Virus record (IMG/VR): IMGVR_UViG_3300033076_000387 | Span: 1-33,280 of that record | Direction: 5' to 3' (one strand) | Length of the DNA stretch: 33,280 bases | Source of the DNA: a virus | Lineage: Duplodnaviria > Caudoviricetes | Shown: positions 3,833-25,188 of the stretch, piece after piece | How positions within the stretch are numbered: position 1 is the stretch's first letter | Layout: every line of letters starts with the position of its first letter | Position numbers and translations under genes: made by a program | The notes under the pieces: model-generated | Database searches by the model: none | The model's input: only the letters and a program-made list of their open reading frames with translations | What the model was told of the DNA's origin: nothing

Positions 3833-3876
3833 AGATGCGCTACACTATATGTTGTTTGTGTGTTTGTTGTATCAAC
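3833..3876. repeat. 44-bp perfect direct repeat, copy 1
   Basis: AGATGCGCTACACTATATGTTGTTTGTGTGTTTGTTGTATCAAC, identical to 4594-4637. Confidence 0.97.
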
Positions 3877-5628: not shown

Positions 5629-5657
5629 ATTGTATATTTACTTATGCCTAATGTCAA
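5629..5657 (-). promoter_or_regulatory. Sigma70 promoter TTGACA-17-TACAAT with TAAATA embedded in its spacer
   Basis: Minus strand reads TTGACA ttaggcataagTAAATA TACAAT. Confidence 0.8.
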
Positions 5658-5712
5658 ATAACTTGGGCAAATAGGTAAATTTTCGGGGAAATGAAAAAGG
5701 TAAAAGAAAGAG

Positions 5713-5740
5713 TTGCACTTTTTCTTTCAGGTATTATAAT
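5713..5740 (+). promoter_or_regulatory. Sigma70-like promoter TTGCAC-16-TATAAT for a leaderless HNH mRNA
   Basis: TATAAT lies 6 nt before ATG 5747; no SD. Confidence 0.6.
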
Positions 5741-5746
5741 AAACAC

Positions 5747-6262
5747 ATGATTACACAAGAACTTTTAGATAAATTTAATACCAAATATAAAATTGACCCA
5801 GAAACTAATTGTTGGAATTGGATTGGTGGAACTCGCATTAAGAAATGGGGATATGGAGGTTTCAAGGTAAAAGGTTTTAACTGGCTTGCACATAGGTTTA
5901 GTTACTATGCATATAAAGGCGATCCTGGCAAATTATTAGTTTGTCATAAATGCGATAATCCTAAATGTGTAAATCCTGAACATTTATTTTTAGGAACTCA
6001 AAAAGATAATGTTGATGATATGATGTCTAAAGATAGACATGGTAGTGGTGGAAATTCGGGTTCTGGATTAAAAGGGACAGATAATCCTTCGGTTAAACTT
6101 ACAGAAGATAATGTTCTTGAAATACGAAGAATTGGAAGGATTGGAACTTCCGGACGAGGTGGTCGTGGGGGAAATACTGAAGAATTAGCAAAACAATTTG
6201 GAGTTAGTAAAGTTTCAATCGCTAATATCTTACACAGAAGAACTTGGAAGCATATAAAGTAA
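5747..6262 (+). CDS. HNH endonuclease (HNH_3 / Zn-loop type) with C-terminal HTH
   Basis: CWNWIG, AHRFSY, VCHKCDNPKCVNPEHLFLGTQKDN; C-terminal LAKQFGVSKVSIANILHRRTWKH. Confidence 0.92.
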   Translation: MITQELLDKFNTKYKIDPETNCWNWIGGTRIKKWGYGGFKVKGFNWLAHRFSYYAYKGDPGKLLVCHKCDNPKCVNPEHLFLGTQKDNVDDMMSKDRHGSGGNSGSGLKGTDNPSVKLTEDNVLEIRRIGRIGTSGRGGRGGNTEELAKQFGVSKVSIANILHRRTWKHIK

Positions 6263-6374
6263 AAAGGATACCTGACATTGCATCAGGTATCCTAGTGTAG
6301 GGGATCGGGAGATTTATAACTAGACAGAAAACACAATATTGGCAACACAAGGATAATGTCTAATTACGCCCTAC
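6260..6374 (-). ncRNA. Putative antisense small RNA C
   Basis: TAAATA 6380-6385. Nested stems TGTAGGG/CCCTACA and TAGACA/TGTCTA. Complement of AAGGAtaATGTCT. Ends in a terminator. Confidence 0.5.
6261..6293 (-). terminator. Intrinsic terminator
   Basis: 11-bp stem AGGATACCTGA/TCAGGTATCCT plus U-tract on the minus strand. Confidence 0.85.
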
Positions 6375-6382
6375 AAAATTAT

Positions 6383-6610
6383 TTATTCTTCTAATTCGTC
6401 TAACTCATCCTCAAGCTCTTTAAGTCTGCGTTTCTTCTTTTCCACTTCTTGGATAAGATTAAATTCTCGGCGGAGTTGATGTAATGCTTCTCCAACCTCA
6501 TTACCAGTTGGATAGCGACTATAGAATTCTTTGAGAATGGGTAGCAATTCTGCTACGCCTTCTGGGTTAGCTTCTTTAATGTAGAATTCAAATTTGAATT
6601 CAGGTTTCAT
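6383..6610 (-). CDS. Hypothetical protein with C-terminal coiled coil
   Basis: SD GGA; ATGA overlap with the upstream ORF. Confidence 0.75.
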   Translation of the reverse strand: MKPEFKFEFYIKEANPEGVAELLPILKEFYSRYPTGNEVGEALHQLRREFNLIQEVEKKKRRLKELEDELDELEE

Positions 6611-6819
6611 TTTGTTTTCTTTCCAAACATGTTATCACATACCATGGAAAAATGTTCTGCACGATTTTTTGGTTCAATTAGAATCCAAGTTAAGATCAAT
6701 GCAAAAACAAATGCACAAGCGTTAGTCACAGCTTTGAATACTTTGATGATTAACCAAAGACAAACGCCGATGAATATGGGCCAAAAAATAATGTTACCAA
6801 TAACATCTGCTGAAAACAT
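6607..6819 (-). CDS. Small membrane protein (two hydrophobic segments)
   Basis: SD AAGGAG, own sigma70 promoter. Confidence 0.75.
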   Translation of the reverse strand: MFSADVIGNIIFWPIFIGVCLWLIIKVFKAVTNACAFVFALILTWILIEPKNRAEHFSMVCDNMFGKKTK

Positions 6820-6845
6820 TGTGCTCTCCTTGTTGCGATATATGT

Positions 6846-6874
6846 ATTATGCTATAGATTGAGGTTTGTGTCTA
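6846..6874 (-). promoter_or_regulatory. Sigma70 promoter TAGACA-17-CATAAT
   Basis: Exact 17-bp spacing upstream of ATG 6819. Confidence 0.7.
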
Positions 6875-6885
6875 TTTGTTTTGGA

Positions 6886-6903
6886 TGTTGTGTTTTTACA
6901 ACA
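6886..6903. promoter_or_regulatory. Operator-like palindrome TGTTGT-N6-ACAACA
   Basis: Inverted repeat 11 bp upstream of the -35 box. Confidence 0.45.
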
Positions 6904-6942
6904 CTAATACTAAAAGCTGATGCTCATATTTTAGTACTATAG

Positions 6943-7023
6943 AAAAACCCCCGAACCTTGCGGAACGAGGGTATTCTAATTTTAGGATTACTTAAAGGGA
7001 ACAAATGTCGTCAAACTATTTGT
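6943..7023 (-). ncRNA. Putative antisense small RNA B
   Basis: TAAATA 7029-7034. Complement of AAAGGGAacaaATGTCG. 3' hairpin ACCCUCG-UU-CC-GCAA-GG-UU-CGGGGGU plus U-tract. Confidence 0.55.
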
Positions 7024-7045
7024 AAAAGTATTTATGCTAATTGTC

Positions 7046-7135
7046 AAAAGAAAACCCCTGAACCTTTTGGGAACAGGGGAATTCATTACCGAGGATTTTC
7101 ATGTCATGCTACTCATAGGCCAATACTTGTAGCAC
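7046..7135 (-). ncRNA. Putative antisense small RNA A
   Basis: TAAATA 7139-7144. 5' stem UGCUAC/GUAGCA. Complement of GAGGAttttcATGTCA. 3' hairpin CCCCUG-UU-CC-CAAAA-GG-UU-CAGGGG plus U-tract. Confidence 0.55.
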
Positions 7136-7147
7136 TTGTATTTAGTC

Positions 7148-7176
7148 AAAAAAGTCCCCGATGCCTAGTCGGGGAC
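7148..7176 (-). terminator. Intrinsic terminator ending the head/fibre operon
   Basis: GTCCCCGA/TCGGGGAC stem plus U6. Confidence 0.9.
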
Positions 7177-7205
7177 AAAGCTATATTAACACATTAAAAT
7201 ATGAC

Positions 7206-7712
7206 TCAGTGATTTTCACTAAAGTCATCAAAGACCTCGGCTCTTGCCGGGCCTAGTCGCTCCAACAACATCGTGTCGTCTTCGCTAAAATATTTACTGG
7301 ATAGGTTCGTAAAATATCCCATAGCAAATAAACGCTCGTTTAGTGTTAGGTCAGGTTGATTCTTTCTTGCATATAACATTGGTCTGCGTTTACGCAAATT
7401 AACATTTCTGCTACTGCACCAATACACTTCAAATTGTTGTTTTTCTAACCAAGTTAGAAATTCTGTTCGTTGTTCAACTGGAACGCAATACACGCTCCAC
7501 CACATGTTATCTTTTTGTTTGTAAAAAACTTGATCTTTTACAAATTGACATTCAATTGGCTTTGTTCCACATACAGCATAATTATAATCATCTGGTTCTG
7601 GTACGGCATATTCAGTTTCATATGCCGTGGGTCTAACCCAACTGATATGTTTACTAATTGCGATTCGTGGATCGTCTAACTTCTTTGTCTTTTTCAATCT
7701 TGGCGTTTTCAT
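7206..7712 (-). CDS. Hypothetical protein
   Basis: Likely start is ATG 7712 (MKTPRLKK), 5 nt after the variant motif CTAAATT. Confidence 0.7.
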   Translation of the reverse strand: MKTPRLKKTKKLDDPRIAISKHISWVRPTAYETEYAVPEPDDYNYAVCGTKPIECQFVKDQVFYKQKDNMWWSVYCVPVEQRTEFLTWLEKQQFEVYWCSSRNVNLRKRRPMLYARKNQPDLTLNERLFAMGYFTNLSSKYFSEDDTMLLERLGPARAEVFDDFSENH

Positions 7713-7744
7713 ATTATAATTTAGCCCGACGAATCGGGCCAAAA

Positions 7745-25148: not shown

Positions 25149-25188
25149 TATTTATGATAAATTTTATGCGATTGCTCCAGGTTAAATA
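25149..25188. promoter_or_regulatory. Divergent pair of TAAATA motifs
   Basis: Minus-strand TAAATA 25149-25154 faces TerS; plus-strand TAAATA 25183-25188 faces the GNAT. Confidence 0.65.

Follow-up and report, generated by a model that had tools for sequence, protein, structure and literature searches.

The window, that is, the whole stretch of DNA analysed here, corresponds to a viral record of 33,280 bases with podovirus-like gene content. It has genes for a terminase, a portal and a capsid protein, for tail and fibre proteins and for a Dps-like protein, and it carries two HNH genes. Among the 42 ORFs scanned, none matched a sigma factor, helicase, integrase or polymerase family. The 357-aa product of the minus-strand ORF at 3840–4913 matches no family; its predicted fold is PolA-like (TM 0.57, a lead only), similar to the palm of DNA polymerase A and to domains that occur in fusion with D5-type helicases, and the ORF is a candidate primase-polymerase gene. 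The minus strand at 2180–2449 encodes an 89-aa protein that occurs in many relatives and is homologous to a small conserved protein of RaK2-like jumbo phages (E 3e-8); a possible role is that of a decoy or regulator of a helper function. In the segment 25154–26123, the Dps/ferritin-like gene, which is shared with the jumbo contig G042, is convergent with a plus-strand ORF that has a TAAATA near its start, at 25183.

Three short units, referred to as A, B and C, lie on the minus strand between 6260 and 7144. The features of this region are the following:

7139–7144, minus strand: TAAATA, predicted late-type promoter of unit A, its role suggested by promoter comparison
7046–7133, minus strand: unit A, predicted RNA of ~88 nt, folding z −2.7
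7029–7034, minus strand: TAAATA, predicted promoter of unit B, kept where near strains swap the middle of B
6941–7023, minus strand: unit B, predicted RNA of ~83 nt, folding z −2.2
6383–6874, minus strand: two small ORFs (6607–6819 and 6383–6610) between units B and C, with a sigma-70-like promoter at 6874–6846
6380–6385, minus strand: TAAATA, predicted promoter of unit C; it shares bases with the stop codon of ORF 6383–6610
6260–6374, minus strand: unit C, predicted long-type RNA of ~115 nt, folding z −5.3
5699–6293, plus strand: HNH endonuclease insertion (ORF 5747–6262), near strains having the empty allele

Structure of the three units

The first-pass annotation had described three minus-strand units, each running from TAAATA to a terminator. 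Its coordinates all hold by sequence, motif scan and folding, and the three units are real. The terminator hairpins, each followed by a T-run, come from the terminator scan for B and C and from folding for A. The RNA 5′ ends are inferred to lie at the sixth base after TAAATA (about 7133, 7023 and 6374). With this start, the first base of each predicted RNA is a purine and opens the 5′ stem, and all three RNAs are more stable than their shuffles, as reflected in the z values above. Covariance models of Rfam 15 run over the whole window gave no match at gathering score; the six sub-threshold matches do not fall on the three units.

The TAAATA of unit A lies directly behind the terminator of the tail-fibre operon (7154–7176). 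The predicted RNA has a 5′ hairpin, an unpaired anti-AUG (7101–7103) and anti-SD (7091–7095), and the terminator at 7055–7079. Unit B is predicted to form a hairpin carrying the anti-start (7005–7007), with an unpaired anti-SD at 6996–7000, a second anti-SD patch at 6983–6987 and a terminator (6948–6971) that is near-identical to one in the relative L003. Unit C is predicted to have a GUAG..CUAC closing stem, an unpaired anti-SD at 6348–6355, a hairpin with a GCC loop (6341–6343) and the terminator at 6265–6293. A fourth TAAATA is located in the 3′ end of ORF 7206–7742; the corresponding minus-strand segment (7154–7296) contains hairpins up to the terminator 7154–7176, and an anti-SD is absent.

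Read on the plus strand, the units show an SD followed by ATG TC at 7091–7106, 6996–7010 and 6349–6361, with stop codons after 5, 6 and 12 codons, exactly as first described. Units A and B each follow the arrangement of an SD, a gap of 3–12 nt and an ATG (p ~0.04 singly). Unit C departs from it, its gap being 2 nt and its anti-AUG adjoining the long closing stem. The initial view that each unit is antisense to an SD + AUG start is retained for A and B but not for C, the ATG of which is atypical. Unit C is best read as one continuous guide that comprises the sequence upstream of the SD and the SD itself. A minor strain (run X3) has A changed to G at position 6356, which converts the plus-strand ATG of unit C into GTG.

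The HNH gene is a mobile insertion by which the original terminator of unit C was replaced. The empty allele in the near strains X4 and X6 has a different, 23-nt hairpin, and the insertion either brought in or created the new terminator of C. The two small ORFs between units B and C are separate from the RNAs. Sigma-70-like promoters on the minus strand at 5629–5657 and 6846–6874 (11 and 10 of 12) front small-gene blocks, and the former overlaps a TAAATA at 5640. Early control by the host and late control by the helper may coincide at these blocks.

A conserved RNA family in related genomes

Units of the same type are present in relatives, and further ones were added by scans. Two scaffolds can be distinguished. 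The short scaffold, that of A and B, leads from a 5′ hairpin through an unpaired anti-SD to the terminator. In the long scaffold, that of C, the GUAG..CUAC closing stem encloses one or two modules; every module consists of a small hairpin, the loop of which is GCCA or UUGCAU, beside an unpaired UCCU patch. The long-type RNAs of the genomes G006, G007, G010 and G011 carry tandem anti-SD patches, mostly without CAU, which implies G-U pairing to AUG or another kind of target.

Strong evidence for an antisense bias comes from the unfiltered ORF-free TAAATA-to-terminator units of this genome and its relatives, all of which were kept. Antisense SD + ATG is found in 17 of these 32 units; shuffling gave 2.8 on average and no more than 8 in 500 trials. 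The same pattern in sense orientation occurs in 3 of the 32, a number reached by 83 of 500 shuffles, and is not enriched. At the family level, the anti-SD/anti-start bias lies far above chance.

Folding of 47 modules predicts mean unpaired probabilities of 0.73 for the loop, 0.28 for the spacer and 0.85 for the anti-SD. In the closing stem of ten two-module RNAs, 6 of 13 pairs are compensatory and 90.8% of the cells are paired. This pairing was equalled by none of 500 shuffles and slid controls gave 31–62%, the RNAs being related, so that the counts do not represent independent events. Among 38 family members, a set from which four candidate units without the family fold had been removed beforehand, a T occupies position +5 in 32 and a G position +6 in 23, and pairing begins between +4 and +6 in 33. 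The strand preference by folding energy is weak, the promoter strand being favoured in 24 of 38. A presence rule assigns units to 17 of 24 near-complete genomes and none to the other seven; as its motifs had been noted beforehand and it recovers only unit A in this window, it is descriptive. The ATGTC string, originally noted as shared, is present at all three sites but is not a rule of the family. It marks one of several guide classes, and the AUG-GC and AUG-CAA classes outnumber it among the collected modules, a set enriched by our own scans.

The same RNA stands behind different upstream genes across relatives, and in near strains the similarity to unit C ends exactly at its TAAATA. Unit B is absent from one near strain. 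Two other runs have a B slot in which the promoter side is kept and the middle is replaced by a different sequence; one of these contigs also keeps the terminator, and the loose end of the other reads SD + ATG TCT. Modules are lost, swapped and moved whole between strains. The anti-SD and the loop are conserved, the stem spacer shows compensated variation, and the unpaired bases 5′ of the UUGCAU loop are invariant. The conserved scaffold with variable middles for which a check of relatives had been suggested was found, in the form of two scaffolds, a covarying stem and swapped guides. The conserved, modular RNA family is real. The proposed designation of the locus as a modular silencing array is borne out with respect to discrete modules and a fixed scaffold, but an exact RBS target of A or B was not found in the collections scanned.

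The putative TAAATA promoter and the probable helper

The TAAATA motif is biased towards the coding strand, both in the window (15 sites against 4 on the other strand) and in 80 related loci (611 against 171). An ORF start is found no more than 80 nt away from 9 of 19 TAAATA sites in the window genome, from 305 of 590 in 26 relatives, where the corresponding figure for a control hexamer is 119 of 899, and from 104 of 272 in the jumbo contig G046. In the autonomous relative MW202484, which shares 61% capsid identity and carries cro, Erf, SSB and RusA genes, this applies to only 1 of 17 sites. For the RaK2-like phage CBB, the genes of which include one for a gp55-like sigma factor, ATAAATA was predicted to be the late promoter (PMC5259590). 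(A)TAAATA stands upstream of the structural operons of the window genome, the arrangement expected of putative RaK2-like late units. The activation by late transcription that the first-pass annotation had proposed is supported to the extent that TAAATA is, by sequence bias and by the CBB motif, a putative jumbo late-type promoter.

The jumbo contigs G041/G042 and G046 fall into the RaK2/Atu_ph07 group, and their TAAATA sites are biased in the same way; one of the G046 genes is for a late sigma factor. Six core proteins of G046, including this sigma factor, gave no tblastn match in 27 satellite genomes. Satellite proteins that match jumbo phages are the small protein encoded at 2180–2449, the Dps-like protein and 61-residue pieces of tail fibres (62–64% identity). 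Since TAAATA precedes the operons, no sigma factor is recognisable and genes are shared with jumbo phages, the window genome is likely to be a virion-encoding satellite of RaK2-like jumbo phages, on which it would depend as helpers.

Search for targets

The first-pass annotation had found no matching starts in the window for A or B and had placed their targets in trans. The first part of this claim is corroborated by complement and rank tests, which covered start regions and exact matches only and by which the own genome is not a preferred target. The longest complements are 9–13 nt, none of them centred on a start site, and the ranks of own starts are not better than the ranks found with 26 other satellites (mean rank 0.61 for 33 modules).

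In IMG/VR, JGI metagenomes and GTDB, no exact complement of a guide was found beyond the loci of the RNAs. Individual scans gave no match for a 23-mer of unit B or an 18-mer of unit A, six chance matches with no ORF longer than 11 aa for a 16-mer of unit B, and two GTDB matches with no real ORF for a 19-mer of unit B. The UUGCAU module of the relatives gave 19 matches, of which nine are family loci and none is a jumbo gene start; a further scan gave three matches, all of them family loci, and GTDB gave none. Comparison of the region with cultured phages by blastn returned short chance matches only, and when the contigs of four runs were compared with the units, no foreign contig with a guide-length match was among the matches listed. 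Start-anchored matching of 40 modules to 1.17 Mb of jumbo sequence gave a best-start score of 0.712, no higher than the 0.719 obtained with shuffled spacers, and units A and B had no match above background in the jumbo set. The exact RBS target of 12–20 nt for A or B for which a check had been suggested was therefore not found in the IMG/VR, JGI and GTDB scans or by jumbo scoring.

Several candidate targets were rejected. The portal gives the best anchored match for unit A, yet only 15 of 19 positions agree, and none of about 35 jumbo portal starts with ATG TCA TGG has the spacer of A. An origin of the anti-SD patch from a neck-gene end reading Asp-Asn-stop was discarded, as 120 of 120 homologues end in ADL or ADF. 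For the GACAU class, the sheath start of G041 takes ranks from 10 to 1992 among 2587, with 466 for A and 336 for B. An SSB start is compatible with the GCC loop but not specific to it: 117 of 120 homologues start with MAS or MAT, and the best mean rank is in G046. The SSB-leader hairpin ranks 48–317 of 680 as a target of the UUGCAU module for nine of ten modules. This hairpin, of 12 bp, lies in the leader of the G046 SSB gene (L356), where it follows TAAATA immediately and so stands at the 5′ terminus of the predicted mRNA; it is itself a candidate autoregulatory site.

All target leads arose post hoc, after the exact scans. The UUGCAU module of the relatives, which none of the units in the window contains, is predicted to form a duplex of about 14 bases with the leader of the G041 tail-sheath gene, just behind TAAATA. 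This leader ranks first of 2587 windows for 6 of 13 UUGCAU modules and among the top four for 10 of 13, and the pairing energy is −19.2 kcal/mol, compared with −15.5 for the best of 22 column permutations. The lead concerns one jumbo phage and homologous modules, and the query was extended after the motif had been seen. For the GCC-loop module, the start of folE in G042 ranks first for 8 of 21 modules; FolE would presumably serve 7-deazaguanine modification of DNA. The folE lead is circular because G042 was found with the GCC-loop pattern. The choice of G041/G042 had been made with the other module of these RNAs, and the independent part of the folE and sheath leads is that the best match of the other module lies in the same phage (230 of 2587 windows). 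Finally, a segment of 30 nt in unit C finds its best predicted partner in the head-protease start at the jumbo locus L267 (−29.5 kcal/mol, rank 1 of 1211), and an orthologue of this protease ranks third for C. This lead is weak because shuffles reach it, 1 of 68 in energy and 5 of 68 in z-score, after about 31 sliding queries. Jumbo mRNAs are predicted targets at the level of leads, with the protease start as a weak one for C.

Proposed function and alternative explanations

We consider it probable that the units encode trans-acting antisense sRNAs of a virion-encoding satellite, which are transcribed with a jumbo sigma factor and block the translation of jumbo mRNAs. The late sigma factor of a co-infecting RaK2-like jumbo phage would fire the unit promoters along with the structural operons of the satellite. 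Transcription would start at +6 after TAAATA, and the paired 5′ end may protect the RNA. The unpaired anti-SD and the loop of the hairpin would serve as nucleation sites before strand invasion, and pairing with the 5′ leader, Shine-Dalgarno sequence and start codon of jumbo mRNAs would block initiation. The satellite would presumably benefit in that ribosomes are diverted and helper virion assembly is slowed while it builds its own particles. A wider reading, which we put forward tentatively and regard as somewhat doubtful, is that a hitherto undescribed virophage-like podovirus clade parasitises RaK2-like jumbo phages with a programmable, protein-free, multi-target RNA battery, the guides of which are swapped as helpers change. 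The battery would combine a fixed promoter–closed-loop–terminator scaffold with guides against tail-sheath, head-protease and folE mRNAs and would fire only with the late sigma factor of the helper.

The conservation of the anti-SD and the loop next to a compensated stem spacer would also suit generic RBS decoys. Such RNAs would recognise only the SD, the AUG and codon 2, as a bipartite mimic of the 16S tail and the initiator anticodon, and would damp classes of mRNAs or titrate an RNA-binding protein. The lack of a spacer-specific match in the jumbo set and of an exact long target in the three collections points in the same direction. However, the invariant bases 5′ of the UUGCAU loop fit one specific leader, and guides are swapped between strains. 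In addition, the own capsid gene starts with SD + AUG GC, so that generic decoys would strike it, and we judge this explanation unlikely. It is quite improbable that the RNAs are directed against host mRNAs, for example those of defence or lysis-control genes, and are on only during helper infection. SD-type RBSs are common to host and phage and host starts lay outside the scanned set, but two exact GTDB scans gave no gene start and the best-scoring leads sit in jumbo late leaders.

The clean reading of SD + ATG on the plus strand, where one class, partly selected by the scan pattern, is always Met-Ala-stop, could be taken as a sign of ribosome-binding minigenes or micro-peptides. A plus-strand product is nevertheless highly unlikely: no TAAATA lies upstream on that strand, the promoter and the T-run are on the minus strand, the peptides differ in length and frame, with indels of 1 nt behind codon 2, and the ATG of unit C is GTG in the minor strain. 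Antisense systems that act on the element's own genes exist, as in P1 C4 and P4 CI, and the RNAs might in the same way repress own early genes; given that own complements are 9–13 nt and off start sites and that own starts have a mean rank of 0.61, we attach very little probability to self-regulation. The region is mosaic and 7 of the 24 near-complete genomes have no unit by the presence rule, as would be expected of orphan promoters and terminators left in a variable region after gene loss. Covariation, the strand-specific anti-SD/anti-start enrichment and the exact module boundaries speak against such non-functional relics, which we regard as scarcely probable.

Comparison with known systems

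No earlier description of this RNA family was met in the literature searched, which included few subscription journals, and SviR is the only helper-acting satellite sRNA encountered there. C4 of P1/P7 and CI of P4 are short structured phage RNAs with unpaired guide segments that act on the immunity transcripts of their own element. Unlike them, the units have no preferred complementary targets in the own genome, as regards start regions and exact matches.

The virophages Sputnik and Mavirus are described as small capsid-encoding parasites with a giant-virus late promoter upstream of their genes (PMC6723459). They belong to a eukaryotic system and offer an analogy only, with no anti-RBS RNAs in the portions of that account cited here. 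MiniFlayer and Mulch are Streptomyces phage satellites that encode encapsidation machinery and lack key replication genes (PMC10690885), and the window element resembles them in both respects. They differ in their hosts and helpers and in that their helper dependence was shown experimentally, whereas it is inferred here; the abstract mentions neither a shared late promoter nor antisense RNAs. The prevalence of satellites of large phages is considered unclear in a review (PMC13359090), and our finding points to a large clade of likely jumbo-phage satellites, with 559 capsid relatives in IMG/VR. In this clade, a modular antisense scaffold shows guide turnover between strains; guides could serve to pair satellites with helpers, and the scaffold could serve as a compact, infection-triggered silencing design.

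The closest parallel by description, not by sequence, is SviR of the Vibrio cholerae satellite PLE, a satellite sRNA with a helper-activated promoter that is induced by helper infection, ends at an intrinsic terminator, pairs at the RBS of the morphogenesis gene gp120 of ICP1 and lowers its translation (10.1101/2022.04.08.487710). The units would work like SviR, and membership is not claimed. SviR is presented as a single RNA that also regulates genes of PLE itself, whereas here each genome has several RNAs that share a closed-loop scaffold and differ in their exchangeable guides, and the search of start regions and exact matches gave no target in the own genome. Furthermore, PLE hijacks virion parts of its helper, whereas the element in the window encodes its own capsid, portal, terminase and tail.
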